The position numbers were made by a program, and so were the translations under genes. From a virus (taxonomy: Duplodnaviria > Heunggongvirae > Uroviricota > Caudoviricetes), in IMG/VR virus record IMGVR_UViG_2698536506_000006: a DNA stretch of 24,146 nucleotides. One strand, given 5' to 3'. Below are positions 2,892 to 19,403 of this stretch, piece by piece. Position 1 is the stretch's first letter. Each line of letters starts with the position of its first letter. Below the pieces are notes generated by a model. It was not told the DNA's origin. It did no database searches and saw nothing but the letters and a program-made list of their open reading frames with translations.

Positions 2892-3188
2892 ATGCTGACG
2901 AAAGAACCATCATTTGCATCGCTGCTGGTAAAGCAAAGTCCGGCAATGCACTACGGTCACGGCTGGATCATGGGTGAGAATGGAAAACGCTGGCATCCAT
3001 GTCATTCACAAGATGAATTGCTGTCTGAATTGACCACGAGGAAACGGAGAAAGTCAAAATGTATGCAGCGGAAAGTGAAGTGGTTTATCAGTTTCGTTAC
3101 AGAGGGGAGAGTTATTCAGTACCTGAAGATGATTTGCTCTGTTGTTATCCGTCGTTGTCGGGCGATGGCAGTTACTTTTTCACGCTAA
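2892..3188 (+). CDS. Hypothetical early protein (uncertain; overlaps the next ORF)
   Basis: ATG at 2892 preceded by GAGGTG. The frame stays open to 3188 but the C-terminal part overlaps 3059-3283 in another frame and looks less protein-like. Confidence 0.3.
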   Translation: MLTKEPSFASLLVKQSPAMHYGHGWIMGENGKRWHPCHSQDELLSELTTRKRRKSKCMQRKVKWFISFVTEGRVIQYLKMICSVVIRRCRAMAVTFSR

Positions 3189-3283
3189 AGGATGGGACGT
3201 TTTTACGGGGAGAGCAGGTTAAAGAGACGATACGAAAAAATGTATCTCCTCTTGAACGTTACCGTAAGAACAAAGAACGATAG
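3059..3283 (+). CDS. Hypothetical early protein, 74 aa
   Basis: ATG at 3059 preceded by ACGGAGAAAG. Plausible composition. Occupies the fil/dhr-like slot of 186-type phages. Confidence 0.5.
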   Translation: MYAAESEVVYQFRYRGESYSVPEDDLLCCYPSLSGDGSYFFTLKDGTFLRGEQVKETIRKNVSPLERYRKNKER

Positions 3284-3305
3284 TTGCGTTTTGGGGATAT
3301 GAATT

Positions 3306-3647
3306 ATGGCAATTAATGGCGCTGCGGCGACTGTTCCATTAAGCCCCGGTGAACGCCTGAATGGACTTAATCACATTGCGGAGTTAAGGGCGAAAGTTTT
3401 TGGTCTGAATATTGAGTCAGAGCTTGAGCGGTTTATTAAAGATATGCGTGATCCACGCGATATTAATAGCGAACAAAATAAACGGGCACTGGCTGCCATA
3501 TTCTTTATGGCAAAAATTCCAGCTGAACGTCATAGCATCAGCATTAATGAGCTGACCACTGACGAAAAGCGGGAGTTGATTAAAGCAATGAATCATTTTC
3601 GTGCAGTAGTGAGCTTATTTCCCAGACGGCTAACCATGCCGAATTAA
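3306..3647 (+). CDS. Hypothetical phage protein, 113 aa
   Basis: ORF with GGGGA upstream of the ATG, within the early operon. Confidence 0.55.
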   Translation: MAINGAAATVPLSPGERLNGLNHIAELRAKVFGLNIESELERFIKDMRDPRDINSEQNKRALAAIFFMAKIPAERHSISINELTTDEKRELIKAMNHFRAVVSLFPRRLTMPN

Positions 3648-3714
3648 CCAACTAATGAAATTAATGGCGTAAACCCGCCGGGCATCCCTTTATCTAAATT
3701 CAGGAGAATTGATT

Positions 3715-3948
3715 ATGCGTAATATTGAAACCCTCTCGACCAAAACCGGACCGGATGACGCAGGGCTTAATATTTTACTGACAGAGGCTCGTCTGGAAGA
3801 ACGCCGGGCAAGGGCTGAAGCAATGGCAGCTCGCCTTGATAGCCTGGCGTGTCATATCACATCCCGCCAGCTAACCCACGTCGAAGCGGCAGAACTGCTT
3901 CGTGTGACTGCTGAAGCAATCCAGAACGAAGCGCAGGAGATCCACTAA
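3715..3948 (+). CDS. Small phage protein (DUF2732-like), about 77 aa
   Basis: AGGAGA RBS 7 nt before ATG 3715. Stop overlaps the next start (TAATG). Resembles the small conserved ORF family common in P2-like early operons. Confidence 0.55.
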   Translation: MRNIETLSTKTGPDDAGLNILLTEARLEERRARAEAMAARLDSLACHITSRQLTHVEAAELLRVTAEAIQNEAQEIH

Positions 3949-4169
3949 TGGCTGATGCAATGGATCTCGTACAGCAGCGCGTTGAAGAAGAACGCCATAT
4001 CCGTGCTGCCCGTGCCAAAACGCCGGGCGTGTCCCGCGTGCTTTGCATTGAGTGTGAAGCGCCAATTCCGCCAGCACGCCGCCGTGCCATTCCGGGTGTG
4101 CAGCTTTGCATTACCTGTCAGGAAATCGCAGAGCTGAAAGGCAAACATTACAACGGAGGTGCTGTATGA
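3948..4169 (+). CDS. TraR/DksA-family C4 zinc-finger protein
   Basis: 73 aa with CxxC...CxxC (CIECEAPIPP...CITCQ), typical of phage TraR-like proteins. Stop overlaps the dam start (ATGA). Confidence 0.75.
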   Translation: MADAMDLVQQRVEEERHIRAARAKTPGVSRVLCIECEAPIPPARRRAIPGVQLCITCQEIAELKGKHYNGGAV

Positions 4170-5023
4170 GCACCATCCTGAAATGGGCGGGAAATAAAAC
4201 TGCCATAATGTCCGAACTGAAAAAACATCTTCCTGCTGGCCCGCGACTGGTTGAACCTTTCGCGGGTTCCTGTGCTGTGATGATGGAGACGGATTATCCC
4301 AGCTATCTGGTTGCGGATATTAATCCTGATTTAATCAACCTCTATAAAAAGGTTGCCGCTGATTGTGAATCGTTTATATCTCGCGCCAGAGTTTTATTTG
4401 AGATCGCAAACAGGGAGGTGGCTTATTACAACATAAGGCAGGAGTTTAATTACTCAACTGAAATTACTGATTTCATGAAAGCGGTATATTTCCTGTATCT
4501 CAATCGTCACGGTTACCGTGGTTTATGTCGCTATAACAAGAGCGGGCATTTCAACATTCCCTACGGTAATTATAAAAATCCGTATTTCCCTGAAAAAGAA
4601 ATTCGCGCATTTGCAGAAAAGGCCCAGCGAGCAACGTTTATCTGCGCCAGCTTTGATGAAACGCTGGCGATGTTGAAGGCGGGGGATGTGGTGTATTGCG
4701 ATCCGCCGTATGACGGTACGTTTTCCGGCTATCACACTGACGGCTTCACTGAAGATGACCAGTATCACCTGGCATCTGTTCTTGAACATCGGTCATCAGA
4801 AGGACATCCGGTCATTGTTTCTAACAGTGACACATCCCTGATCCGTTCGCTGTATCGCAATTTTACTCACCACTACATCAAGGCAAAACGCAGCATCGGT
4901 GTGGCAGCTGGCGAGGGTAAATCAGCAACAGAAATTATTGCTGTTTCCGGGCCGCGCTGCTGGGTGGGATTTGATTATTCGCGTGGCGTGGATAGTTCTG
5001 CCGTGTACGGAGTACGTGCATGA
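4166..5023 (+). CDS. dam: DNA adenine methyltransferase (Dam family, N6-adenine)
   Basis: Begins [11 protein letters not shown]. AdoMet-binding motif EPFAGSCAV and catalytic DPPY ([11 protein letters not shown]). GGAGGT RBS. Translationally coupled to the upstream and downstream genes. Confidence 0.9.
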
Positions 5024-7407
5024 GTCATGCCGATATGAACAACTGCTGCGGCTTTAACGAAGCTGCCGCATCGTTCTCATGGAACAGCCCGAAAAAGGCC
5101 ATTAACCCTTATCTGGACCCGGCGGAAGTTGCGCCGGTTTCTGCGCTTTCAAACCTGATCACTCTGTACGCTACTGATAACGAGCAGGAACAACTGCGCC
5201 GCGAGGCACTGAGTGATCAGGTCTGGGAGCGTTATTTCTTTAATGAATCCCGTGATCCTGTCCAACGCGAAATGGAGCAGGATAAGCTCATTAGCCGGGC
5301 AAAGATGGCGCATGAGCAGCAGCGTTTTAATCCAGACATGGTCATTCTGACTGACGTCAACGCCCAGCCTTCCCATATCAGCAAGCCGCTGATGCAACGT
5401 ATTGAATATTTCAGCAGCCTGGGCAGGCCAAAGGCTTATTCCCGCTATTTGCGTGAGACGATTAAGCCATGTCTGGAACGACTGGAGCATGTACGCGACA
5501 GCCAGCTATCTGCATCTTTTCGTTTTATGGCAAGCCATGAAGGGCTGGACGGTCTGCTGATCCTGCCTGAAATGAGTCAGGATCAGGTGAAACGCCTGTC
5601 TACCCTTGTCGCTGCGCATATGAGCATGTGTCTTGATGCCGCTTGTGGTGATTTGTACGCCTCCGATGATGTTAAGCCAGAAGAAATCCGCAAGACATGG
5701 GAAAAGGTGGCTGCAGAAACCCTGCGACTGGATGTCATACCGCCTGCGTTTGAGCAACTCCGCCGGAAAAGAAACCGCCGCAAACCTGTGCCTTATGAAC
5801 TCATTCCGGGTTCGCTGGCGCGTATGCTGTGCGCCGACTGGTGGTATCGGAAATTATGGAAGATGCGTTGCGAATGGCGGGAAGAGCAGTTGCGTGCTGT
5901 CTGCCTGGTCAGCAAAAAAGCATCTCCCTATGTCAGCTATGAAGCCGTGATGCATAAACGTGAGCAGCGCCGTAAGTCGCTGGAGTTTTTCCGTTCTCAT
6001 GAACTGGTGAACGAAGACGGCGACACGCTGAACATGGAGGATGTGGTAAACGCCAGCAGCAGCAACCCGGCGCATCGCCGCAACGAGATGATGGCCTGTG
6101 TTAAAGGCCTGGAGCTTATCGCGGAAATGCGTGGTGACTGCGCCGTTTTCTACACCATCACCTGTCCGTCACGTTTCCATTCCACGCTAAATAACGGCAG
6201 GCCAAACCCGACCTGGACCAACGCGACAGTAAGACAAAGCAGCGATTATCTGGTCGGCATGTTTGCTGCATTTCGTAAGGCTATGCACAAAGCCGGGTTG
6301 CGCTGGTATGGCGTGCGGGTGGCTGAGCCGCATCATGACGGCACAGTTCACTGGCACCTGTTGTGTTTCATGCGCAAAAAAGACCGCCGCGCCATTACTG
6401 CATTGTTGCGTAAGTTTGCCATCCGTGAAGACCGCGAGGAGCTGGGCAATAACACGGGGCCACGCTTTAAGTCTGAGCTGATAAACCCGCGCAAAGGAAC
6501 GCCGACAAGCTACATTGCGAAATATATCAGTAAGAATATTGACGGGCGTGGTCTGGCTGGCGAGATCAGTAAGGAAACGGGTAAATCCCTGCGTGATAAC
6601 GCTGAATACGTTAATGCCTGGGCGTCTCTGCATCGTGTTCAGCAATTCCGCTTCTTTGGCATTCCGGGGCGTCAGGCTTACCGTGAACTGCGATTGCTGG
6701 CTGGTCAGGCGGCAAGGCAACAGGGTGACAAAAAAGCAGGTGCGCCGGTACTGGATAACCCGCGCCTTGATGCCATCCTGGCTGCTGCTGATGCTGGTTG
6801 TTTTGCCTCCTACATCATGAAGCAGGGCGGCGTACTGGTTCCCCGCAAATATCACCTCATCAGAACCGCTTATGAAATCAACGAAGAGCCGACCGCCTAT
6901 GGCGATCACGGTATTCGTATTTATGGCATCTGGTCACCCATTGCAGAGGGCAAGATCTGCACTCATGCAGTGAAGTGGAAAATGGTTCGTAAGGCCGTTG
7001 ACGTTCAGGAGGCGGCAGCCGACCAGGGCGCTTGCGCCCCTTGGACTCGTGGCAATAACTGTCCCCTTGTTGAAATTTTGAACCAATCAGGGGGCGAATC
7101 ACCCGAACCCAAAGAGCCGGAGGCGCTGCCGGATCTCCATAATCTGAGCGCGAGGGAACGGCGGGAGCTGACGGCCCGGCTGAGGCTGGTAAAACCGAAG
7201 CGGCGAAAAGGGTACAAACAGGAAATTAACGAACAGCAGCGTCAGCAGCTCGACGCTGAGTTGAGGTCCAGAGGGTTTGAAGCGAGTGAAACAGAGGTGG
7301 ATCTGCTTTTGCGTGGCGGCAGCATTCCGTCCGGGGCCGGGCTGCGTATTTTCTACCGCAACCAGCGCCTGCAGGAAGATGATAAGTGGCGGCAGTGGTA
7401 TTCATGA
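5020..7407 (+). CDS. A: Replication initiation endonuclease gpA (rolling-circle, HUH family)
   Basis: 795 aa. HUH-like motif [10 protein letters not shown] and active-site tyrosine region YIAKYISK. Position after the early regulators as in P2/186. Confidence 0.9.
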
Positions 7408-7497
7408 ATAGCCACAAGGGCACGCAATTACTGCAACGAGTCAGAAGTATCTCATTGAAAGCAAAAAAGCATTTTACATCCGGAAACTTCTTCTATA

Positions 7498-7528
7498 CTG
7501 TATATATAAACAGTGGATATATATACAG
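7498..7528. promoter_or_regulatory. Inverted repeat, candidate operator or promoter element upstream of ORF 7562
   Basis: CTGTATATATA (7498-7508) and its reverse complement TATATATACAG (7518-7528) separated by 9 nt, about 35 bp upstream of an AGGAGGGA RBS. Confidence 0.35.
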
Positions 7529-7561
7529 TTTATTTATCCGGCAGTATCGATAGGAGGGAAG

Positions 7562-7750
7562 ATGCAGGACTATTTTCTGGAGTCGTTGAAGCTCCAGCGC
7601 ATTGATTTTTTTATCAAGCTTGTAGCGGCGAGTGAGTGTGATGACGAAGAAAAGCAGCTGGCGATTCAGTGGGTTTCTGAGTTAACGGATGAGCTGATGG
7701 CGAAGATTCGTGCTCATGAATACAACCGCTCAATGGATATTCCCGGTTAG
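7562..7750 (+). CDS. Hypothetical protein, 62 aa
   Basis: Strong RBS AGGAGGGA. Acidic, helical-looking small protein. Lies between gpA and cos. Confidence 0.5.
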   Translation: MQDYFLESLKLQRIDFFIKLVAASECDDEEKQLAIQWVSELTDELMAKIRAHEYNRSMDIPG

Positions 7751-7828
7751 CAGCAGGAACGTTGCTGGCGCAAGAACTGGCTTCTTACGTCAGCAAGGTT
7801 GAACAACGAGTCCAGCGAGGCGTTAGCC

Positions 7829-8095
7829 ATGGCTAAATCCAACAGCAAATTCCAGACCGTCTATGAGGGGCAGGTGCTTGAGCGTTTCGAGCCCGGTGGA
7901 TGGGTCTTGTTTCAACGCCGTTCTGAATATGGCGGTAAGTTCTGGATGGGACGAACCATGGACGATGTATTTTTGTTTGGTCCCGATCATCCGGTATCTG
8001 GAGGTGAGGCTATGAGCTTCATCATTGATTACGAGGGTGAGCAATTCAGACGGTCTTTACCCGTCGAATATACCCCACAGATACCGCTTTTCTGA
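7829..8095 (+). CDS. Hypothetical protein, about 88 aa
   Basis: ATG at 7829 with GAGG upstream; the frame is open from 7799. Followed by a terminator-like hairpin. Confidence 0.5.
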   Translation: MAKSNSKFQTVYEGQVLERFEPGGWVLFQRRSEYGGKFWMGRTMDDVFLFGPDHPVSGGEAMSFIIDYEGEQFRRSLPVEYTPQIPLF

Positions 8096-8160
8096 GAACC
8101 GGCTGAGTGCATGTCTATGCTGCATGAGATCGCATGATCGTTTGAGGATCGTTTTCGCTG

Positions 8161-8190
8161 AAGCCCGCCAGAACTGGCGGGCTTTTGGTT
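8161..8190 (+). terminator. Rho-independent terminator-like hairpin
   Basis: AAGCCCGCC / GGCGGGCTT 9-bp stem with 6-nt loop, followed by TTTTGGTT. Confidence 0.55.
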
Positions 8191-8231
8191 ATGTCATGCA
8201 GGTGCATGAAAACCGCTACATAAAGCGGGCA

Positions 8232-8250
8232 GGCGTGGCGGGGATACGAG
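8232..8250. other. Candidate cos site (cohesive-end sequence of P2/186 type)
   Basis: GGCGTGGCGGGGATACGAG followed by CGCGCGC. Closely resembles the P2/186 cohesive ends as I recall them (GGCG[A/T]GGCGGGGAAAGCA...). Lies between the A-side and Q-side of the genome as expected. Confidence 0.5.
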
Positions 8251-8297
8251 CGCGCGCCCGGCTTGCTATTTGTTCGTTGCAACATTAGTATTCCTAT

Positions 8298-8450
8298 GCT
8301 CTTTAGCGTTAGGGAACCATTGCGTTCTAGCCGGGCGATAAGCCAGGCTCTAATTTATTGCTCAGTTTAGGGTTGCGAAAGCGACGAATTCGTCGCTTTC
8401 GCTGTCTTTAGTGAAGAGCTCGGCCCGCGCAAGCGGGCCTCACAAGCGGA
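8298..8450 (+). ncRNA. Candidate retron msr/msd non-coding RNA (boundaries approximate)
   Basis: Non-coding stretch immediately upstream of a retron-type RT. Contains a perfect 28-nt palindrome (8375-8402) and a GC hairpin with GCAA loop (8422-8439). Possible promoter TTGCTA (8263-8268), 17-nt spacer, TAGTAT (8286-8291). a1/a2 repeats were not resolved by eye. Confidence 0.35.
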
Positions 8451-9392
8451 ATGTTTATGGAAATTTTATCGGCTGTTAGCAAAGAACTTGGAGTAAACGT
8501 TAACGAGCTGAGGCGGTTATCGAGTGTTGCGCCTAAAAAATATAAAGTCTACACAATTCCTAAACGACAAAGTGGATTCAGGCTTATTGCTCAACCAACG
8601 AGTGAGATAAAGCGAATTCAGCGTGAGGTTGTGAAAATTTTGGCTTCCAAGCTCATCGTGCACGATGCAGCGAAAGCTTATAAAGTTTCTATAGGAATTA
8701 AGGACAATGCCAAAATCCATATGGCAAACTCCTATCTTTTAAAAATGGATTTTCAGAATTTCTTCAATAAAATTAAACCGGCTCTTTTATTTGATAAACT
8801 TCGCTCTCAAGGGGTTGTTTTGTCAGGTGAGGATAAGGAGTTTTTAGAAGGGATTCTTTTCTGGAAACCAGGAAAAAAAAGAAGTATCACTCTCGTGTTG
8901 AGCGTTGGGGCGCCATCCTCACCTTTTGTTAGTAATTTTGTAATGTATGATTTTGATAATTATATAAACAATTGGTGCTCTGTTAGGAATATTTCATATT
9001 CAAGGTATGCTGATGATATTACATTTTCTACAGATGAGAAGAATATACTTTTTGAGGTCCCGAAAGTAGTAAGGTTTGCATTATCATTATGTGCTAAAGG
9101 TATATCTTTAAATGAATCTAAAACTGTATTCACGTCTAAAGCTCATAATAGACATGTGACAGGTGTGACATTAACAGTTGATGGGGAGCTTTCGCTCGGT
9201 AGGCAAAAGAAGAGAATGATTTCTTCTCTGCTGCATAAATATACACTAGGCTTACTGGCTAAAGAGGATGTTATAAGCCTTAAGGGCTTTGTTGGACATG
9301 CTTTATATATCGAGCCTAAATTTATTGCTAGAATGAAAATTAAATATGGGAAAGAAGTAATACATGCGCTTTTTTCTGAGGAGGGGATGTGA
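8451..9392 (+). CDS. Retron-type reverse transcriptase
   Basis: RT motifs: GAPSSPFVSN (motif B-like), RYADDITFS (YADD catalytic motif) and the retron-characteristic VTG motif (NRHVTGVTLTVDG). AT-rich. Alternative start at ATG 8457. Confidence 0.85.
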   Translation: MFMEILSAVSKELGVNVNELRRLSSVAPKKYKVYTIPKRQSGFRLIAQPTSEIKRIQREVVKILASKLIVHDAAKAYKVSIGIKDNAKIHMANSYLLKMDFQNFFNKIKPALLFDKLRSQGVVLSGEDKEFLEGILFWKPGKKRSITLVLSVGAPSSPFVSNFVMYDFDNYINNWCSVRNISYSRYADDITFSTDEKNILFEVPKVVRFALSLCAKGISLNESKTVFTSKAHNRHVTGVTLTVDGELSLGRQKKRMISSLLHKYTLGLLAKEDVISLKGFVGHALYIEPKFIARMKIKYGKEVIHALFSEEGM

Positions 9393-11044
9393 ACTCAAAG
9401 TATACTAAATCACCAAATGACATTCGTACATTATTGCAGTCTTATGTAAATAAAACTGAAGATGGTTTAGAATTCAGTAAAGAGAACATTCCTGAAGAGG
9501 TATCTTCGTTATATAAGGAAATTGAAGATGCACCATTTCTTATAAATAAAGTCGCCATCTCAGACTATAAAAGAGTCAGGGATCTTTTTGTTTCGATCGA
9601 CAAAAAACTAACAGTGTTTGTTGGTGATAATGGTTACGGTAAAACCACCATTCTTGAAGCATTATTTATTGCTTTAAGTTGGTTTAGAGCAAATGTTCAA
9701 AAAGAAGATAAAAGCGGTTTTCATATAAAAGATGGTGATATTAACAATCATAATGATGTCAATTATGCTGCAATAACTGCGCAGTTTAAACTTAAAAAAA
9801 TAACGTCAAATATTTTAGTTACACGTGTTAAAGATGGAGTATCACAAAAAAGAAATAATGAGTTGCTTTCTATAAAAGAGATGGCGTCATTCTTTCGTGT
9901 TGTGAATTCATATTATGAAGATGTAAGCCTTCCGGTTCTTGCATATTACTCTGTATCAAGATCTTCAAATGGTGCAGGCATAGATAATAAAAGAAATGTT
10001 AATAATTCTGTGCGTCGATGGACTAAGCTTGATGCTTATGAAGATATAGAGTTTGATCGCCGTGACTTCGGTGAGTTTTTAAATTGGTTCATATTTGTTA
10101 ATAATAAGGCATTGTCTGAGGAGTCCTTGATACCAGAAAAACAAAGAGATCAACTTGTTATTGATATCTCAAAGCTTAAGGTATCTTTGGAGGTTTTGAA
10201 ATCTTTCAGTGATGTTGATAGAAGAACATTAATAGATATAGAAACACAAATTGCTAATAAAGAGTTGATTCTTAATACGTTACCGTCTACACCAAATGGT
10301 TTAAGTCGTTCAAAAGATATTGTTGCTAATGTTAAAAGGGCAATAATTAATTTCCTTCCTGAAATTAGCTCTGTTGAACTTCAATATACTGAAAATGAAG
10401 TTCGTTTAGTTTTAGCAAAAGATGATTTACTATTAGATGCCCAGCAACTCTCTCAAGGGGAGAAAACTATACTTACATTAGTGGGGGATTTAACAAGACG
10501 CTTGGTGTTGCTGAATCCTAAGTTAAATAATCCACTTCAAGGGAAAGGTATAGTATTAATTGATGAAGTTGATCTTCATTTGCACCCAAGCTGGCAGCAA
10601 AACATTATTGAGAAATTGCAGCATACATTTCCTAACGTACAATTCATAATTACCACTCATAGCCCTCAAATTGTATCGACAGTTCCAAGTAAATGCTTGC
10701 GCATCCTTGAGGAAATAAAAAACCCTTCGACAGGCATGAAGGAATTACGTGTGCTTTTACCATCATCTCAAACAAAAGGTACTAAGAATTCGTACGCTTT
10801 GCTTTATGGGATGAAAACAGATCCTGTACCTAATGTAAAAGAAGTCGCATGGCTGAGCACTTATAAGAAATTTATTGAAAACAGGCAGCAGGATTCGGAG
10901 GAAGCCATAATGATAAGGAAAAAGTTAGACAAGCATTATGGAATTGATCACCCATTATTACTTGAGTGTGATGGTATAATTCGTGTATTAAAGCTAAAAG
11001 ACAAAGTGCGGGGTGAGTCTGGCAATAAGGAATCTAAACAATGA
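9389..11044 (+). CDS. Retron-associated ATPase (PtuA/Septu-like, ABC/OLD-type)
   Basis: Walker A GDNGYGKTT, Walker B VLIDEVDLHLH, H-loop-like ITTHSPQ. GTG start overlapping the RT stop (ATGTGA), preceded by GAGGAGGGG. Confidence 0.8.
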   Translation: MNSKYTKSPNDIRTLLQSYVNKTEDGLEFSKENIPEEVSSLYKEIEDAPFLINKVAISDYKRVRDLFVSIDKKLTVFVGDNGYGKTTILEALFIALSWFRANVQKEDKSGFHIKDGDINNHNDVNYAAITAQFKLKKITSNILVTRVKDGVSQKRNNELLSIKEMASFFRVVNSYYEDVSLPVLAYYSVSRSSNGAGIDNKRNVNNSVRRWTKLDAYEDIEFDRRDFGEFLNWFIFVNNKALSEESLIPEKQRDQLVIDISKLKVSLEVLKSFSDVDRRTLIDIETQIANKELILNTLPSTPNGLSRSKDIVANVKRAIINFLPEISSVELQYTENEVRLVLAKDDLLLDAQQLSQGEKTILTLVGDLTRRLVLLNPKLNNPLQGKGIVLIDEVDLHLHPSWQQNIIEKLQHTFPNVQFIITTHSPQIVSTVPSKCLRILEEIKNPSTGMKELRVLLPSSQTKGTKNSYALLYGMKTDPVPNVKEVAWLSTYKKFIENRQQDSEEAIMIRKKLDKHYGIDHPLLLECDGIIRVLKLKDKVRGESGNKESKQ

Positions 11045-11709
11045 AATTCCTTGCTAGAAATCCCATTGGTCCAGGTGTTTTAGCCGAGTTTGACTACAAT
11101 ATTCATGACTGGAATGCTTTTAAACGGCGACATAAACAATTAGTCTGGGTCGGTTTAGTTGAAATGCAAGGGAAGAGATGTGCGTATTGTGAGCGGAAAA
11201 TAGATATTCACAATAGTGATGATAAGCATATCGAGCATTTTTTGCGTAGAAGCCAGCATAGGCATTTAACATTTGAATGGTCAAACTTGTTCGGCTCTTG
11301 TGCTGAAAATAATCACTGCGGTTTTTACAAAGATGAACAGAGCTATCAGGAGCAAGACCTAATCAAGGCCGATAATGATGACCCCACACATTTTTTCCAT
11401 TTCGCTATTAATGGAAATATGGATATTCGTCCGGGGTTATCGCGAAACGATGAGCGAAGAGCTGAGGTTACTATAAGGGTTTTTAACCTGAATGGTGAAA
11501 AGGGCGGCGTGAAAACTGAGCGCATCAATGCAATATCAGAAACATGGTCATTGATAGAGAGATTTGTTTCTACAGCTGAAGAGTTCATCGAAGAGGGACT
11601 TTATGATGATAGTGTCCGTAACGAACTTCGAGACGAGTATTATAAAGAAATAGACCCCAGACCATTCTCTACTGCGTTGCGTGATGTTTTTGATACGATG
11701 CTTCCTTAA
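11041..11709 (+). CDS. Retron-associated HNH endonuclease (PtuB-like)
   Basis: HNH-type motif CAYCE...DDKHIEHF...N...SCAENNHC. Start overlaps the ATPase stop (ATGA). Confidence 0.8.
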   Translation: MKFLARNPIGPGVLAEFDYNIHDWNAFKRRHKQLVWVGLVEMQGKRCAYCERKIDIHNSDDKHIEHFLRRSQHRHLTFEWSNLFGSCAENNHCGFYKDEQSYQEQDLIKADNDDPTHFFHFAINGNMDIRPGLSRNDERRAEVTIRVFNLNGEKGGVKTERINAISETWSLIERFVSTAEEFIEEGLYDDSVRNELRDEYYKEIDPRPFSTALRDVFDTMLP

Positions 11710-11741
11710 ATTAAAGAGTCTCATTTGAGACTCTTTAATTT
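11708..11741. terminator. Bidirectional terminator between the convergent retron operon and portal gene
   Basis: Near-perfect inverted repeat AAATTAAAGAGTCTCA / TGAGACTCTTTAATTT with a 2-nt loop, between the HNH stop and the portal stop. Confidence 0.6.
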
Positions 11742-12766
11742 TACATCGAATATTCTTTAAAATTTATTATATCGTCATTTAACCATCGGTTGATTTCACA
11801 GATTCTTTGCTGTAAGGGGATTACTTCATTTCTTACAAAAACCTTACTAGCCTTTTCCACATCCCCAAACCCGCCAACATTACTCGGCATAATCCCCATC
11901 ATCTGAGGCGGCACACGATGCGCCGCCATCATGTCATCCCGGCTCACGTTCTTGATATTCAAAAACTCATCCTTCGCCGCGACTTCTGACAACGGGATGA
12001 TCTGAAGCCCGTCCTTTTTGCCGTTAGGCGAGTACATAAACAGGTTGCGGAAGTTACCTGGGCCTTTGGCGCTTTTCATCGCGTTGCGGAGGTTGTTCAC
12101 ATCCTCCTGGTTTTGTGCGGCGTCGGTCATGTACATGATGAAGCCTGCATGACTGCCGTTAATGTAATACTTCCGGCGGAACAGCGTGGCGGACTCGTTG
12201 AGCAGGGCTGACGGAATGGCAGAAAGATAACCGGGCAGGCCGTAGATCTCCTGGTTGATGTCCGGTTCCATCAGATGAAAAATGCTGCCTTTCGTGAACT
12301 GATACGGCTGGGTTGTCATACCGTATTGCACAAACCAGTAGGTATCCAGGTCTAACCCGCGTCGTGTGTATTTTGCCAGGGCAGGTTCAAAGGCGATAAT
12401 TTCACCGAAGCGGTTCGTGCGTTTCTCCAGGTAGGCGTTACCAAATACCAGATAGTCCTGCACAAAACGTGAAAAAGCCTGCTGGCTGAGCAGCGGGTGA
12501 GGGATGTAGGTACTGGTCAGAATGTTGCATTTCACCGCAATTGGTGAACTGTGATGCACGGCGGCGCGGAAGGTGCGCGCCAGTCCGTCAAAGCTTACTG
12601 GCGGCTCATACCAGCGATCTGTCTGTACGCATTCCACATAGTCCAGTAATTCGCGGCGGTCCAGAACAGGAACGGGATCACCGAAGCTGAATGCTTCGGC
12701 TGAAGTTTGTTTTTTATACTGGATCTGATTCGTCGCCGCAGCGCGGTTCTTCTTACTCTTTCCCAT
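11741..12766 (-). CDS. Q: Portal protein (P2 gpQ-like)
   Basis: About 341 aa, the size and position of P2 Q. ATG at 12766-12764 overlaps the terminase stop (ATGA arrangement on the minus strand). Confidence 0.9.
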   Translation of the reverse strand: MGKSKKNRAAATNQIQYKKQTSAEAFSFGDPVPVLDRRELLDYVECVQTDRWYEPPVSFDGLARTFRAAVHHSSPIAVKCNILTSTYIPHPLLSQQAFSRFVQDYLVFGNAYLEKRTNRFGEIIAFEPALAKYTRRGLDLDTYWFVQYGMTTQPYQFTKGSIFHLMEPDINQEIYGLPGYLSAIPSALLNESATLFRRKYYINGSHAGFIMYMTDAAQNQEDVNNLRNAMKSAKGPGNFRNLFMYSPNGKKDGLQIIPLSEVAAKDEFLNIKNVSRDDMMAAHRVPPQMMGIMPSNVGGFGDVEKASKVFVRNEVIPLQQRICEINRWLNDDIINFKEYSM

Positions 12767-14532
12767 CAAAAAATCTCCACAATATTGCTGGTATTGGCGG
12801 ACTCGCCCTGCAGCGGTTCGTTAAACAGTGCGTGCATTGTTGCCCAGGCCAGATCGGCATGGCTGGCTTCTTCGCTGCGGCTGGCTTCATAGGTCGGGCG
12901 GTTGCCGCTGGCGGTGGTGGCACGGCGGATTGCCATGAATGACTGCGCAATGTCGGTGTGTCCGGCGTCAAACTCCAGACGGCGGTGGCTGATAATGTCG
13001 TAGGCCTTGAGTACCAGGGCGTTTTTAACATTGGGGTTATAGACAAACTCCCGGACGGCAGGAAAAAACGCTTTCACGTTCTCATAAACCCCGTGACCGA
13101 CGCCTGTCGAGTCGATGCCGATATAGGTCACGTTGTACTGCTCGGTCAGTTTTTTGATTGCATCAGCTTGGGCGCGGAAGTCCATCCCGCGCCACTGGTG
13201 ACGCTCAAGAATGCGAAACTTACCGCCTGGCACGGCTGGCGGTGCCACCACCACGCATCCGGCGCTGTCGCCGTTCTGCGTACCTTTTGCCGGGTCATAA
13301 CCGATCCACACCTCGCGCCAGCCAAACGGGCGCAGGGCCAGTGCATGAAAGTCGGTCCAGACTTCCCAACTGTCCACCATGCATGCCTGCAGCTCGCTGA
13401 GCGGGAACACGGACGCGAGATCGTCCACAAACTCGCACATCAGCAGGTTCTGGTATTCGTCCGGGCTGTACTCCATGCGCAACTGGTCGAGGTCGAACAG
13501 GTTACAGCCGCCGCGCACCGCATCTTCCACGGTGACTATCTGGCGGTATTGCCCGTCTGCGCACAGCAGGCCGGGGGCCAAGTTGCTGTGGGACAGGTCG
13601 ATGTCCACCTTGTCGGCTTTGTTGCGTCCACGGTTGAACAGCGCACCGGACCAGAATGGATAAGCACTGTGGGTCAGACTGGATGGCGTGGAAAAATAGG
13701 TCTGCCGCCATTTTTTGTGAATAGCCATACCGGAAGCCACTTTGCGCAGCTCCTGGAATTTCGGGATCCAGAAATATTCATCCAGATACAGGTTGCCGTG
13801 GTAACTCTGGGCCGTGCGGGCATTGGTGCCGAGGAAGTAAAGCGTGGCCCCGTTAGGAAGCACCATCGGATCGCCTTTCAGCTCCACCTCCACTTCTTTG
13901 GCAAAGTCGATGATGTACTGTTTAAAGACGTGGGCCTGAGCCTTGCTGGCAGAAAGGAAAATCTGGTTACGCCCGGTCAGCAGGGCGTCAATCAGGGCTT
14001 CACGGGCAAAGTAAAAGGTCGCGCCGATCTGGCGTGACTTCAGCAGGTTGCGGATGCGGTTGGTTTTTCCGGCTTCCCACCAGTGGCGCTGGTAGTTGAA
14101 CATGGAGGAATGGAAGATTTCTTCCAGCTTCTCAATCTGTTCATCGGTGAAAACATTCTTTTCCGGCTGACGGCGCGGGCCTTTGTTGCGGTTGGCGACG
14201 TTTGGGTTTAAGTCGGCTTCGTTGCCGCCATTGTTAAACTTGCCGATCCGCGCGTGGCGTTCCGACTGGCGCGCCAGCAGGTCAATCTCTTTGAAATCTT
14301 TCCCTTCTTTGTGCTCCTTCATAATGAGCTGGCAGTAGCGTGCGGCGGTGGTGAGCTGCATCTGATCCAGCGGCCCATAGTCACCCCACTTGTCGCGTTT
14401 TTTCCAGCTGTGAACGGTTGCAACTTTCTCGCCCAGCATTTCAGCAATGCGGGCTACGCGGTATCCCTGAAAGTACAGCAGCATGGCCTGCCGACGGGGA
14501 TCGAGATCTGCGGGTGTCAGTGTGGTGTTCAT
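12766..14532 (-). CDS. P: Terminase large (ATPase) subunit (P2 gpP-like)
   Basis: 588 aa, divergent from the scaffold gene as in P2 (P/O divergent late promoters). Confidence 0.9.
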   Translation of the reverse strand: MNTTLTPADLDPRRQAMLLYFQGYRVARIAEMLGEKVATVHSWKKRDKWGDYGPLDQMQLTTAARYCQLIMKEHKEGKDFKEIDLLARQSERHARIGKFNNGGNEADLNPNVANRNKGPRRQPEKNVFTDEQIEKLEEIFHSSMFNYQRHWWEAGKTNRIRNLLKSRQIGATFYFAREALIDALLTGRNQIFLSASKAQAHVFKQYIIDFAKEVEVELKGDPMVLPNGATLYFLGTNARTAQSYHGNLYLDEYFWIPKFQELRKVASGMAIHKKWRQTYFSTPSSLTHSAYPFWSGALFNRGRNKADKVDIDLSHSNLAPGLLCADGQYRQIVTVEDAVRGGCNLFDLDQLRMEYSPDEYQNLLMCEFVDDLASVFPLSELQACMVDSWEVWTDFHALALRPFGWREVWIGYDPAKGTQNGDSAGCVVVAPPAVPGGKFRILERHQWRGMDFRAQADAIKKLTEQYNVTYIGIDSTGVGHGVYENVKAFFPAVREFVYNPNVKNALVLKAYDIISHRRLEFDAGHTDIAQSFMAIRRATTASGNRPTYEASRSEEASHADLAWATMHALFNEPLQGESANTSNIVEIF

Positions 14533-16586: not shown

Positions 16587-19403
16587 ATGAGCCTGAGTCC
16601 CGCACGGCAGCATCGCCTGCGCGTTCAGGCTGAACAGGCCGCCCGCGAGGGCGGCAGTGTTCGCCACGCATCGGGCTATGACCTGATGCTGCTGCAACTG
16701 GCGGAAGACCGCCGCCGTCTCAAGGGCGTTCAGTCCACGGTCAAAAAAGCGGAAATCAAGGTGGAGCTGCTGCCGAAGTACGCCGCCTGGGCAGAGGGTG
16801 TCCTGGCTGCCGGAGGCGCTCAACAGGATGACGTGCTGATGTACGTGATGCTGTGGCGCATTGATGCCGGAGATTATGCCGGGGCGCTGGAGATCGGGCG
16901 TCACGCCCTGCGTCATGGCTGGGTGATGCCGTTGGGTAACCGCAACGTGCAGACCGTGCTGGCAGAGGAAATGGCAGACGCGGCGCAGAGCGCAATGCTT
17001 GCCGCCACCGGCTTTGATGCTGATCTGTTGCTGCAGACGCTGGAGCTGACAGACGGTCTGGATATGCCGGACCAGTCACGGGCACGTCTGCATAAAGCGA
17101 TTGGCGCTGTCTGGACCGACGGCATTGGTAATACGTCAGGCGTCATTCCCGGCAAAACCATTACGGAGCGACAGGCAGCAGAAGGGCTGATCTCCAACGT
17201 GCTGCGTGTCGAGCGGGCGCTGGAAAGGTGTGTGAAGCAACAGCCGCCGCAGAAGGTGTATGACGCTGCGGTGTCGTTTGCCTTCAACGTGGGAACGGGC
17301 AATGCCTGCAGTTCCACGCTGGTGAAATTACTCAATCAGCGGCGCTGGGCAGATGCGTGCCGACAGTTGCCGCGCTGGGTTTATGTGAAAGGTGTTTTTA
17401 ATCAGGGGCTGGATAACAGGCCAACCGCCGCGCAGGCAAAGTTATTCAGTCAGGCCAAAACACGAGTACAGGAACTTCAGCAGACTTATAACGGCTTGTT
17501 GGGGGCGGTCCAGAGACAACGTCAGGCACTTAAAGAATCAGGGATTGATACCAGACAACTCAGTAGTGCCCAGCGAGAACTTAAAAAAAATGCTGAAGAA
17601 ACAAGGCAGGCACTGGAGGGCCAGCAAAAAGCACTTAAACGTCTGGGTGAACAACAGGCACGGATGAACGCTGCCAGAGAACAATACTCAAGACGGCTTG
17701 AAGTGCGCGATCGCATCGCAGGAGCCGGAGCCACTACCACGGCTGCAGGGCTGGCAATGGGTGCGCCAGTGATGGCGGCAGTAAAAAGCTATACCAGCAT
17801 GGAAGATGCCATGAAAGGTGTGGCAAAGCAGGTCAATGGTCTGCGTGACGATAATGGCAACCGCACTGCACGTTTTTATGAAATGCAGGATGCCATCAAG
17901 GCTGCCAGCGAACAGTTGCCGATGGAAAACGGTGCGGTGGACTTCGCTGCACTGGTTGAAGGTGGTGCGCGCATGAACGTCGCAAACCCTGACGACAGCT
18001 GGAAAGACCAGAAACGTGACCTGCTGGCCTTCGCCAGTACGGCAGCAAAGGCGGCAACAGCCTTTGAGCTGCCAGCGGATGAACTGTCAGAAAGTCTGGG
18101 GAAAATCGCCCAGCTCTACAAAATACCTACGGCAGCAGTAACTCGAACCAGCAGCGCGTTGTCCTGGCTGGCTGGCGCACCACTGGCACTGCTGCGACGC
18201 GGGCTTGCTTCATCGGGCAACGCAGCGGGTTTACTTACTGCGCCGTTGTCGTCTTTGCGCCGCACGGCATCACTGACGGGGAATGTCCTGAAAACTGTAG
18301 CAGGTGTGCCGGTTGCACTGTTGCGGTCTGGATTATCCGGTTTACGTGCTGTTGCTGTGATGTTTATGAATCCACTGGCAGCACTACGCGGTGGACTGGC
18401 TGCCGCAGGCGCGGTGCTGCGAGTGCTGGCATCCGGTCCGCTGGCGATGCTGCGCGTTGCTCTGTATGCCGTATCTGGTCTGTTAGGTGCTCTGCTCAGT
18501 CCGATAGGTCTTGTGGTTACTGCACTGGCAGGCGTGGCGCTGGTTGTCTGGAAATACTGGCAACCCATCACCGCATTTCTCGGTGGCGTGGTGGAAGGAT
18601 TCAAAGCGGCGGCAGGTCCCATCAGTGCTGCATTCGAACCACTTAAGCCTGTGTTTCAGTGGATTGGCGACAAAGTGCAGGCGCTGTGGGGCTGGTTTAC
18701 TGATCTGCTGACGCCTGTTAAGTCGACCTCTGCCGAACTGCAGAGCGCAGCGGCAATGGGGCGACGATTCGGGGAGGCACTGGCGGAAGGGCTGAATATG
18801 GTCATGCATCCGCTGGACTCCCTGAAATCCGGCGTTTCCTGGTTGCTGGAGAAACTCGGCATTGTCAGTAAAGAGGCTGCAAAGGCGAAACTGCCGGAAA
18901 GCGTGACGCGTCAGCAACCTGCGACGGTGAATGCAGACGGTAAAGTGATGATGCCATCAGGTGGTTTTCCATCATGGGGATATGGTTTTGCGGGGATGTA
19001 TGACAGCGGTGGGTATATCCCGCGCGGGCAGTTTGGCATTGTCGGTGAAAACGGGCCTGAAATTGTCAACGGCCCGGCAAACGTGACCAGCCGGAGAAAT
19101 ACAGCTGCACTGGCTGCCGTTGTTGCCGGAATGATGGGTGTTGCTGCCGCGCCAGTAGAGCTTCCACCGTTGCACCCTTTGGCATTTCCCGCGAAAGGCG
19201 GTGAAGCGATGGTGAGTCGCGCAGCCACTGTGCCGCCCGTTCAACGGATTGAGGCACCGACGCAGATCATCATCCAGACGCAGCCAGGACAAAGTGCGCA
19301 GGATATTGCGCGGGAGGTGGCACGCCAGCTTGATGAACGTGAACGCAGGCTGAAGGCAAAAGCCAGGAGTAACTACAGCGATCAGGGGGGATACGACGCA
19401 TGA
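16587..19403 (+). CDS. Chimeric 938-aa ORF: gpM-like N-terminus (about aa 1-170), lysozyme-like C-terminal segment (about aa 175-280), then tail tape-measure protein gpT-like (about aa 290-938)
   Basis: N-terminus has gpM-like features (...AQQDDVLMYVMLWRIDAGDYAGALEIGRHALRHG...). Middle has GH24 phage-lysozyme C-terminal motifs (VYDAAVSFAFNVGTGNACSSTLVKLLNQRRWADACRQLPRWVY). The remainder is coiled-coil plus Ala/Leu/Gly-rich hydrophobic repeats typical of tape-measure proteins, ending just before gpU. Junctions approximately at nt 17080-17110 and 17400-17455. Confidence 0.7.
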   Translation: MSLSPARQHRLRVQAEQAAREGGSVRHASGYDLMLLQLAEDRRRLKGVQSTVKKAEIKVELLPKYAAWAEGVLAAGGAQQDDVLMYVMLWRIDAGDYAGALEIGRHALRHGWVMPLGNRNVQTVLAEEMADAAQSAMLAATGFDADLLLQTLELTDGLDMPDQSRARLHKAIGAVWTDGIGNTSGVIPGKTITERQAAEGLISNVLRVERALERCVKQQPPQKVYDAAVSFAFNVGTGNACSSTLVKLLNQRRWADACRQLPRWVYVKGVFNQGLDNRPTAAQAKLFSQAKTRVQELQQTYNGLLGAVQRQRQALKESGIDTRQLSSAQRELKKNAEETRQALEGQQKALKRLGEQQARMNAAREQYSRRLEVRDRIAGAGATTTAAGLAMGAPVMAAVKSYTSMEDAMKGVAKQVNGLRDDNGNRTARFYEMQDAIKAASEQLPMENGAVDFAALVEGGARMNVANPDDSWKDQKRDLLAFASTAAKAATAFELPADELSESLGKIAQLYKIPTAAVTRTSSALSWLAGAPLALLRRGLASSGNAAGLLTAPLSSLRRTASLTGNVLKTVAGVPVALLRSGLSGLRAVAVMFMNPLAALRGGLAAAGAVLRVLASGPLAMLRVALYAVSGLLGALLSPIGLVVTALAGVALVVWKYWQPITAFLGGVVEGFKAAAGPISAAFEPLKPVFQWIGDKVQALWGWFTDLLTPVKSTSAELQSAAAMGRRFGEALAEGLNMVMHPLDSLKSGVSWLLEKLGIVSKEAAKAKLPESVTRQQPATVNADGKVMMPSGGFPSWGYGFAGMYDSGGYIPRGQFGIVGENGPEIVNGPANVTSRRNTAALAAVVAGMMGVAAAPVELPPLHPLAFPAKGGEAMVSRAATVPPVQRIEAPTQIIIQTQPGQSAQDIAREVARQLDERERRLKAKARSNYSDQGGYDA

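Follow-up and report, generated by a model that had tools for sequence, protein, structure and literature searches.

The closest solved relative of the locus described here is the FORC82 type I-A retron of E. coli (PDB 9N69, 9N6B and 9N6C; George et al. 2025, PMC12475279). Its order is ncRNA, RT, PtuA, PtuB, and within a P2-like prophage it lies directly past the same cos 19-mer as here and ahead of the portal gene. In the FORC82 structure, the msDNA stem extends across the entire complex and acts as a scaffold for two ATPase dimers, and mutants with a dead RT are toxic (PMC12475279). Synthesis of msDNA, sequestration of the effector and phage defence have all been shown for homologues of the system described here (PMC12475279). 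Ec78 (Retron-Eco7) is also a type I-A retron with a PtuAB effector, but the Ec78-like system compared here is located near glaH, in an integrase-associated island, and not in a P2-like prophage.

The position between cos and the portal gene is itself known as a site for cargo. Ec67 and Ec86 were placed between cos and a terminator in 186-related prophages in 1996 (Dodd and Egan, Virology 219:115, as cited in PMC6868368). The cos-proximal gpA-gpQ region of P2-like phages, from replication gene A to portal gene Q, was presented as a hotspot for defence systems, retrons among them (Rousset et al. 2022, PMC9122126), and this was confirmed over 8165 prophages (NAR 2026, PMC13586616). In their accounts of this locus, where diverse defence systems are rapidly swapped, these papers treat the region as one hotspot; the nucleotide-level junctions given below come from our own analysis. 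P2 itself carries tin and old on the A side of cos, and its Q side is empty at 167 bp, whereas the window has its main cargo on the Q side.

We analyzed a 24,146-nt stretch of DNA (the window) from a 186/P2-like (Peduoviridae) prophage whose integration site is between rcdA and ybjL. An original prediction, made from the sequence, held that it carries a retron as acquired defence cargo in the A-to-Q region. We are confident that bases 8258-11740 are a self-contained type I-A retron with a Septu-type PtuA/PtuB effector, occupying the slot between cos and the portal gene.

Anatomy of the cassette

The cargo block is AT-rich and lies between cos and a bidirectional terminator hairpin. Its GC content is 0.366, compared to 0.50-0.555 in the backbone, by segment. 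In sliding windows, GC is 0.31-0.40 over 8500-11750 and 0.52-0.60 in the phage genes on either side. Codon usage follows the same pattern: GC3 is 0.32 in RT, 0.26 in PtuA and 0.37 in PtuB, compared to 0.59-0.71 in the A, portal, terminase and capsid genes. The contrast in base composition that had been predicted from the letters is therefore borne out by both measures. The cassette runs from a putative promoter, 4 nt past the left junction, through the msr/msd ncRNA to RT, the ATPase PtuA and the HNH nuclease PtuB, and all three genes read from cos towards the portal gene (Table 1).

Table 1. Coordinates of the retron cassette and its flanking features in the window
Feature	Position	Strand	Details
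gpA	5020-7407		Pfam Phage_GPA, 2.5e-127
LexA-box-like sequence	7496-7514	+	TACTGTATATATAAACAGT; read from sequence; upstream of A-side small genes
orf62, A-side accessory gene	7562-7750	+	
orf88/98, A-side accessory gene	7799 or 7829 to 8095	+	
Backbone terminator hairpin	8161-8187	+	fold -21 kcal/mol, z -3.26; present in relatives
cos, 19-nt cohesive-end sequence	8232-8250	+	GGCGTGGCGGGGATACGAG; 186 cos match, uniqueness, conservation
Left cargo junction	8258	.	7 nt past cos overhang
Putative sigma-70 promoter	8262-8290	+	-35 TTGCTA, 17-nt spacer, -10 TAGTAT, then 7-8 nt to ncRNA 5' end
msr	8298-8366	+	Rfam RF00170, 55.1 bits vs gathering score 52, E 2.8e-08
msd template	8367-8417	+	hairpin 8375-8402
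msd 3' closing repeat	8410-8417	+	TGAAGAGC
GC-rich hairpin between ncRNA and RT	8422-8439	+	
Retron reverse transcriptase	8451-9392	+	313 aa; YADD residue 186, VTG residue 236
PtuA SMC-like ATPase	9389-11044	+	551 aa; Walker A GDNGYGKT residue 79, Walker B VLIDE residue 389
PtuB HNH nuclease	11041-11709	+	222 aa; CAYC residue 47, HIEH residue 63
Bidirectional terminator hairpin, cargo-specific by comparison	11708-11741	.	perfect 15-bp stem, 4-nt loop
Portal gene	11741-12769	-	Pfam Phage_portal
Diffuse right junction zone	11741-11850	-	AT-rich portal 3' end

The three proteins were assigned by profile matches. RT is matched by PADLOC RT_I-A (3.4e-131) and NCBIfam retron_St85_RT (309.5 against a cut-off of 235), PtuA by PADLOC PtuA (2.7e-181) and ATPase_I-A (1.8e-155) as well as Pfam AAA_15 and AAA_21, and PtuB by PADLOC PtuB (6.9e-114) and HNH_I-A (2.5e-55) and NCBIfam PtuB (151.3 against a cut-off of 150). 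The NCBIfam equivalog score of PtuA (460.7) is below its cut-off of 500. For each protein the best PDB match is a FORC82 chain: 9N69_E for RT (9.7e-112), 9N69_A for PtuA (1.1e-158) and 9N69_F for PtuB (2.3e-70). The gene order is also that of FORC82, but the proteins have diverged to 56% (RT), 47% (PtuA) and 49% (PtuB) identity. Ec78 shares the architecture and the effector families, and RefSeq names the PtuB of a sibling prophage 'retron Ec78 anti-phage system effector HNH endonuclease PtuB'. The cassette is not Ec78/Eco7 itself, however, since identity to the Ec78-like system is 44% (RT), 34% (PtuA) and 37% (PtuB), and the Ec78 chains in the PDB match far more weakly than those of FORC82.

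The msr lies directly upstream of RT on the same strand and aligns with the FORC82 and Ec78-like ncRNAs. The landmarks of the FORC82 ncRNA are all found here: the CTCTTTAG priming site, the AGCCGGG...CCAGGCT stem and the GGGTTGCGAAAG...CTTTCGC base of the msd. Priming at A7/G8 has been reported for FORC82 (PMC12475279), and the priming guanosine of this retron would be at 8306, within the priming site. The putative promoter matches the consensus at 8/12 positions, which is under the scan threshold; its layout (TTGCNN, 17 nt, TAnnnT, 7 nt, priming site) recurs in two other type I-A lineages in the slot. FORC82 and Ec78-like retrons have a hairpin at the position equivalent to the GC-rich hairpin ahead of RT, which may be the ncRNA 3' end or an attenuator.

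A mechanism can be proposed by homology, drawing on the published accounts of FORC82, the closest solved homologue (PMC12475279), and of Ec78/Eco7. RT would copy the msd into msDNA, and the msDNA hairpin would scaffold four PtuA and one PtuB, with the HNH nuclease held inactive. If phage flap or exonucleases degraded the msDNA, the freed PtuAB would cleave host tRNA, stopping translation and aborting the infection.

A shortened msd in a defective prophage

The msd hairpin is 48 bp shorter than in both sibling prophages, and the deletion is bounded exactly by two GAATTC repeats. This leaves a stem of 12 bp with a 4-nt loop, where the siblings have 27+7 bp and FORC82 has 28+6 bp. A stem of 12 bp instead of about 34 bp makes the activity of this copy doubtful. 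Its msDNA is predicted at about 53 nt, compared to about 101 nt in the siblings and an expectation of about 80-100 nt for type I-A retrons. The prophage is also defective, without lysis and tail genes. Set against L097, a full-length relative that shares its attachment site, the window is without about 1.25 kb from the 3' end of M to the 5' end of K, about 11 kb from the 3' end of K to the 5' end of T, and about 0.8 kb within T. The ORF at 16587-19403 is a chimera.

These losses could mean that the cassette is a decaying, non-functional remnant in an eroding prophage, its msd hairpin having lost the distal two thirds. We consider this a possibility to be taken seriously, though an unlikely one. 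Because the msDNA of FORC82 spans its complex and joins the two ATPase dimers, a half-length msDNA may fail to assemble such a complex. On the other hand, the three ORFs are intact with their catalytic motifs and differ from those of the siblings by 0-1 residue. Three sibling prophages hold the cassette and each has lost different structural genes, which suggests that the cassette is retained. If free PtuAB were toxic, as in the FORC82 RT mutants, inactivating mutations in the effector genes would be expected, and none are present. Sequencing through a long hairpin might also have produced the msd deletion as an artefact.

Boundaries of the cassette and its probable route of arrival

The left edge of the cassette is sharp. 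The conserved cos block spans about 8194 to 8257, and among 56 species-representative prophages of different species every position as far as 8257 has 0.82-1.00 identity to the window, except 8244 (0.59). At 8258-8260 the identity falls to at most 0.18. Homology stops at 8257 or 8258 in all compared prophages, which were 8 annotated prophages, BLR(DE3) and the 56 species representatives. Ec86 in BLR(DE3) has the same boundaries as the cassette in the window: its cargo starts past an identical cos 19-mer followed by CGCGCGC, and the match to the window picks up again at 11804, in the portal gene. Ec86 is a type II-A retron, with another effector and RT clade.

The right edge is diffuse. The original prediction had placed the boundary at a strong bidirectional terminator abutting the portal stop, and the terminator is indeed there, with a free energy of -18.5 kcal/mol (z -6.65) on the plus strand and -19.0 kcal/mol (z -7.27) on the minus strand. 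It shares 2 nt with the PtuB stop and 1 nt with the portal stop, and thus fills the entire intergenic space. A simple scan by consensus missed it, since its T-run belongs to the stem. The terminator is cargo-specific and travels with the cargo: it is in none of the prophages whose sequences were compared, and each of these has its own hairpin. The junction is elsewhere: among 73 related loci, homology resumes at 11734-11850 (median 11810); 72/73 alignments start no earlier than 11750, and the remaining one starts at 11734, in the 3' arm of the terminator. The last 20 portal codons are 25% GC, compared to 52% for the remainder of the gene. By these alignments, the right junction lies inside the portal gene, within its last ~3-36 codons, and not at the terminator.

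Judging only from this boundary pattern, the cassette was most likely exchanged in from another prophage of this clade through homologous recombination, with one crossover in the conserved block next to cos and a second in the portal gene. Such a model would account for the fixed left edge at cos+7, because the selective constraint on cos ends there, and the crossover in the portal gene would explain the spread of the right edge.

Retron mobility was proposed in the early literature, and retrons do recur in this slot (Ec86, an St85-type retron in Klebsiella phage 4LV2017 and three type I-A lineages), as might be seen if the retron had inserted itself as a mobile retroelement, by retrotransposition or by its own site-specific mechanism. 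We find this very improbable. Unrelated cargo without an RT shares the exact left junction with the retron cassette. No flanking direct or inverted repeats of at least 8 nt were found around the cassette, and its Pfam and PADLOC matches and ORFs include no integrase or transposase. The portal 3' end and a terminator also move with each cargo, which fits a crossover in flanking homology.

Cargo turnover in related prophages

Among 68 related prophages with a recognisable cos, the slot is filled in 57 and empty (<300 bp) in 11; it is also empty in P2 and 186. The filled gaps have a GC content of 0.32-0.66, and of at most 0.48 in the enterobacterial cos clade. Most relatives, and every one of this clade, have filled slots of 0.32-0.48 GC, compared to about 0.51-0.59 for their portal genes. 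The cargo families found elsewhere in the slot include PDC-M11A, bSEFIR, AbiLi, AriA, Old, PD-T4-9, TIR, KAP and RES, together with PARIS-like systems and other retrons. Annotated examples are an OLD-like nuclease, DprA, the St85-type retron of 4LV2017, Hypoth_Ymh and AIPR. Two further type I-A lineages in the slot are 47-56% identical at the protein level. With few exceptions, the cargo ORFs and the portal gene are convergent.

These comparisons support the earlier proposal that cargo is exchanged at the same boundaries, since other genes stand between the point where homology ends and the portal 3' end where it resumes. They also agree with the A-to-Q hotspot as presented in PMC9122126 and PMC13586616. 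A conserved RT/ATPase/HNH core at this position, which would have spoken against acquired cargo, was not seen, and the cassette is present in only 2 of 5426 complete E. coli genomes. The three sibling prophages share an attachment site and at least 99.9% identity over the cassette, as an ancestral core of the phage lineage that others lost or replaced might, but we see hardly any chance of this given that 2 of the 1290 E. coli genomes with the flanks carry it, that its GC3 is far below that of the backbone, and that the slot holds different cargo in 57/68 relatives and none in P2 and 186.

The cos site and the position of the cargo

In phage 186, a p95 promoter and a LexA site are annotated at the place equivalent to the LexA-box-like sequence on the A side of cos. 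This sequence, which is outside the cargo and is given as context, would be the counterpart of the 186 p95 SOS operon. The hairpin at 8161-8187 is the counterpart of 186 t95b and ends A-side transcription ahead of cos. The accessory genes orf62 and orf88/98 have no family match in Pfam, PADLOC or NCBIfam; orf62 is kept among relatives, and orf88/98 stands where relatives have DinI/Tum.

The cos assignment of the original prediction stands. The 19-mer matches the annotated 186 cohesive end GGCGTGGCGGGGAAAGCAT at 15/19 positions, and the 13-mer GGCGWGGCGGGGA occurs once in the window, compared to 0.01 occurrences expected by chance. The block CATAAAG(C/T)GGGCA upstream of cos is common to the window and 186. 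The 19-mer departs from the cos of 186 at 4 positions and from that of P2 at 5, but there is next to no likelihood that it is not the functional packaging site and that the cassette lies elsewhere relative to the DNA ends, since its place relative to gpA, the terminators and the portal gene is that of the cos in 186 and P2, and it has no second copy in the window, has a conserved flanking block and is near-invariant in the 56 prophages of different species while the adjoining DNA is unconstrained.

In 186 and P2, the mature left end begins at the 19-nt overhang, with the portal gene about 170 bp on. By this homology, the cassette would take up the first ~3.5 kb of the packaged genome, at the left end as predicted. 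For the copy in the window this is hypothetical: the loss of the lysis and tail genes means that the prophage cannot package itself, and any advantage of a packaging or virion position cannot operate in it.

The cassette is thus where it was predicted to be, on the Q side of cos, but the position is not a special one. It is the known swap-in slot, in which retrons such as Ec67 and Ec86 had already been described, and the finding is correct but ordinary. From the relatives compared, filling of the Q side is the norm in this clade.

Layout and state of the prophage

The window prophage is P2/186-like and integrated at rcdA | ybjL. A near-identical prophage occupies the same site in two complete E. 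coli genomes, M37H and AREA_497 (the siblings). The features surrounding the retron are listed in the table.

Features of the window around the retron cassette
Feature	Coordinates	Strand	Basis
Replication gene A	5020-7407		Pfam Phage_GPA, 2.5e-127
Two small genes without annotation	7562-7750, 7799-8095		
Terminator hairpin	8161-8187		folding
Cos-like sequence GGCGTGGCGGGGATACGAG	8232-8250		
AT-rich block of three genes	8451-11709		
Hairpin	11708-11741		folding
Portal gene	11741-12769	-	
Terminase gene	12766-14532	-	

L097 is a full-length relative integrated at this attachment site. Against it, three stretches are missing from the window: about 1.25 kb from the 3' end of M to the 5' end of K, about 11 kb from the 3' end of K to the 5' end of T and about 0.8 kb inside T. 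The 938-aa ORF at 16587-19403 is chimeric, joining terminase-small, lysozyme(-like) and tape-measure segments in frame. The head, lysis and tail deletions differ among the window and the two sibling loci, L001 and L013, while all three keep int-A-cos-retron. Judged from this gene content, the window prophage is defective.

Two other places in the prophage drew our attention. A near-consensus LexA box, TACTGTATATATAAACAGT, lies at 7496-7514 upstream of orf62 and orf98, where phage 186 has its SOS-controlled p95-tum operon; the two are probably counterparts. Of the small genes, the second (7799-8095) stands in the place of the DinI/Tum-like gene of relatives and had no family match. A second AT-rich patch (1001-1750, GC about 0.35) is found between the integrase and the CI repressor and contains a 63-aa YdcA-family ORF on the - strand (1219-1410). 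This patch looks like another cargo slot, since L097 has a SNIPE-associated gene at the matching position (2946-4622).

Composition and boundaries of the cassette

The original prediction described an AT-rich cassette lying between a cos-like site and a bidirectional terminator, and composition, cos matching and folding all agree with it. In a sliding window, GC dropped to 0.31-0.40 within the AT-rich block, compared to 0.52-0.60 outside. The cargo as a whole is 36.6% GC, while the backbone is 50-55.5%. Codon usage followed the same pattern, with GC3 values of 0.32 (RT), 0.26 (PtuA) and 0.37 (PtuB) in the cargo and 0.59-0.71 for A, portal, terminase and capsid. The cos 13-mer GGCGWGGCGGGGA has a single copy in the window (0.01 expected), and the 19-mer equals the annotated phage 186 cohesive end at 15 of 19 positions. 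The block upstream of cos is common to the window and phage 186, and P2 has the same cos type as the window. On the other side, the hairpin adjoining the portal stop pairs perfectly over a 15-bp stem, with folding energies of -18.5 and -19.0 kcal/mol on the two strands (z -6.65 and -7.27), and takes up the entire PtuB-portal intergenic space. A simple terminator scan did not list this hairpin because its T-run lies inside the stem; folding settled the matter.

The boundaries were mapped using 80 related-portal loci from species-representative genomes. A cos motif was present within 4 kb downstream of the portal gene in 68 of these and at any distance in 69. Enterobacterial-type P2/186-like portal genes also occur on two contigs labelled as organisms outside the enterobacteria: L077, a MAG labelled Bacillota, and L078, a contig labelled Chryseobacterium sp. 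18061 that also has the exact 186-type cos GGCGTGGCGGGGAAAGCAT. Both are probably contamination or mis-binning.

Per-position identity to the window was computed over the 56 prophages with its cos type. Identity was 0.82-1.00 over 8223-8257, except at the variable position 8244 (0.59), and went down to 0.07-0.18 at 8258-8260. This fixes the left junction 7 nt past the cohesive end (cos+7). All eight annotated prophages and phages with differing content lose homology to the window exactly at 8257.

The right junction is diffuse. Homology returns at 11734-11850 (median 11810), within the last ~3-36 portal codons. The last ~20 codons (11741-11803) are 25% GC compared to 52% for the remaining gene, yet the protein pattern I-x-F-K-x-Y is maintained, and therefore the portal C-terminus is exchanged along with the cargo. 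Each prophage compared has a distinct cargo-portal hairpin. While the predicted terminator does abut the portal stop, it is part of the cargo rather than its right bound, and the probable recombination zone falls within the portal gene. Self-transposition of the cassette was rejected because no target-site duplications or inverted repeats of at least 8 nt were found at the cargo edges.

Other cargo in the cos-portal slot

The distance from cos to portal was below 300 bp in 11 of the 68 prophages; P2 and 186 have equally short gaps of 167 bp and 176 bp. The other 57 have 300-3500 bp here and were counted as filled. Most filled gaps have a GC content of 0.32-0.48, including every one in the enterobacterial cos clade. 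These gaps contain 102 ORFs of 100 aa or more, which matched many unrelated defence families, among them PDC-M11A, PDC-S49, bSEFIR, AbiLi, AriA, Old, PD-T4-9, TIR, KAP NTPase, AbiC, RES, Fic and Schlafen. Annotated cargo in the slot includes an OLD-like nuclease, DprA, Hypoth_Ymh, an AIPR Abi protein and, in Klebsiella phage 4LV2017, a St85-type retron. Cargo ORFs and the portal gene are convergent in nearly every case. Some prophages have their cargo on the A side instead, for example DUF6236 in locus L011, as P2 has tin and old. The cassette was correctly placed on the Q side, but this is nothing special, as Q-side cargo is the common state in the clade.

The cassette itself is rare. Its flanks are present in 1290 of 5426 complete E. 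coli genomes and the cassette in only 2 of these. A distant DNA search with the cassette found only 14 E. coli genomes; besides the 2 with the cassette itself, six carry two other lineages of type I-A, which share about 70% of their DNA sequence with it. Three short matches in N-6 DNA methylase genes from this search were disregarded. Given the varied slot contents in relatives, the RT/ATPase/HNH trio is not a conserved core at this position, and cargo is exchanged at shared boundaries.

The slot has been described before. Rousset et al. 2022 report a hotspot in the gpA-gpQ region close to cos, where 18,150 loci show 1650 arrangements, retrons among them (PMC9122126), and a 2026 study extends it to 8165 P2-like prophages (PMC13586616). 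Together with the unrelated defence genes in relatives, these papers bear out the view of the A-to-Q region as an anti-phage hotspot. Retrons at exactly this position, Ec67 and Ec86, have been known since 1996 (Dodd and Egan). We confirmed this for Ec86 in BLR(DE3): the cos 19-mer is identical to the window's, and homology stops at 8258 and returns at 11804. The FORC82 retron also occupies the cos-portal slot. The placement of the cassette was thus already known. The original prediction further put it at the extreme left end of packaged DNA. This holds by homology but would not apply to the window copy, the prophage being defective, unless a helper phage acts.

Identity and likely working of the retron

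The Rfam msr model matched 8298-8366 with 55.1 bits (gathering score 52). Rfam matches to CRISPR-DR28, snoRNA and rnk-leader models in 7400-11800 were below gathering scores (E 0.3-1) and were judged to be chance. With PADLOC models, the RT matched RT_I-A (3.4e-131), the ATPase matched ATPase_I-A (1.8e-155) and PtuA (2.7e-181), and the HNH protein matched HNH_I-A (2.5e-55) and PtuB (6.9e-114). With NCBIfam, the RT was above the cut-off for retron_St85_RT, PtuB was just above its own (151.3 vs 150), and PtuA scored 460.7, below the equivalog cut-off of 500. The YADD, VTG, Walker A and Walker B motifs and the HNH histidines were all found.

Among solved structures, each of the three proteins has its top homologue in PDB 9N69, which comes from the E. 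coli FORC82 retron, also of type I-A (PMC12475279). The RT, PtuA and PtuB are 56%, 47% and 49% identical to those of FORC82 and 44%, 34% and 37% identical to those of an Ec78-like system. By protein sequence, these values place the cassette in a separate, divergent type I-A lineage; Ec78 proper was ruled out at 34-44% identity. An Ec78-like retron, its PtuA annotated as Ec78 PtuA, is present at 3940-7057 of L016 (E. coli ECNB21-M121). It lies outside any P2-like prophage, on an island near glaH/ypjC whose integrase is frameshifted, and therefore type I-A retrons are not tied to a single type of mobile context.

Directly past the left junction is a promoter-like arrangement, TTGCTA, 17 nt, TAGTAT, with the ncRNA start 7-8 nt further on. 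Two other type I-A lineages have the same arrangement at an equal distance from CTCTTTAG. We regard it as a putative retron promoter on this positional evidence, which is not proof. The ncRNA shares conserved landmarks with FORC82 and Ec78, and the analogy with A7/G8 of FORC82 would put its priming guanosine at 8306. Between the ncRNA end and the RT start codon is a GC-rich hairpin, GGCCCGC GCAA GCGGGCC (8422-8439). FORC82 and the Ec78-like retron each have a different hairpin at this place, followed in the latter by a T-run. The hairpin may be an ncRNA terminator or attenuator.

By homology, the window retron should work as FORC82 and Ec78/Eco7 do. The FORC82 complex is a 364-kDa assembly of the RT, four ATPase subunits and one HNH subunit, with the ~90-nt msDNA running through its centre as a 'harpoon' (PMC12475279). 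RT-dead mutants are toxic. Degradation of the msDNA by phage flap or exonucleases (T3, T5 D15, T7) activates the HNH, which cuts tRNA-Ser (PMC12475279). Ec78/Eco7 degrades tRNA-Tyr.

A shortened msd hairpin

The msd hairpin (8375-8402) lacks 48 bp found in both siblings (L001 9976-10051, and L013), whereas the rest of the cassette is identical to theirs or one residue apart. The gap falls exactly between two GAATTC direct repeats of the stem. The DNA stem measures 12 bp in the window; the siblings have 27+7 bp and FORC82 has 28+6 bp, and all four full-length type I-A ncRNAs aligned have the long stem. In FORC82, cutting back just the 12-nt tip left defence unchanged; the loss in the window is far larger.

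The junction of the short allele had no match in metagenome contigs. In viral contigs it had one match only, an IMG/VR contig that follows the window for 14,009 bases at 100% identity, which is probably from the same source and is therefore not an independent observation. The shortening possibly arose by replication slippage across the hairpin, or it may be a sequencing artefact; the data fit both. We consider it rather unlikely that this is a real allele, with msDNA of about half the normal length, and a natural test of PtuAB restraint. The FORC82 msDNA stem threads the whole particle and holds two ATPase dimers (PMC12475279), so the short allele, if real, would test how much msDNA is needed to check PtuAB. 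Such a system could be disarmed, held at another stoichiometry or altered in its sensitivity to phage nucleases.

Significance

The locus is a textbook case of the defence hotspot that P2/186-like prophages have next to cos. The finding is real and was rightly interpreted, but ordinary: the cassette is a divergent retron of an established type and lies in an established prophage hotspot, at junctions on record since 1996, with little significance past confirmation. What is added is a nucleotide-level picture of the slot, with its left edge at cos+7, its right edge diffuse within the portal end, and cargo that brings its own putative promoter and terminator and is nearly always convergent with the portal gene. 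Also added is a divergent type I-A lineage whose proteins share 47-56% identity with those of the closest solved retron. Of the features here, only the truncated msd might justify experiments; it could help to learn how the length of the msDNA governs a PtuAB effector.
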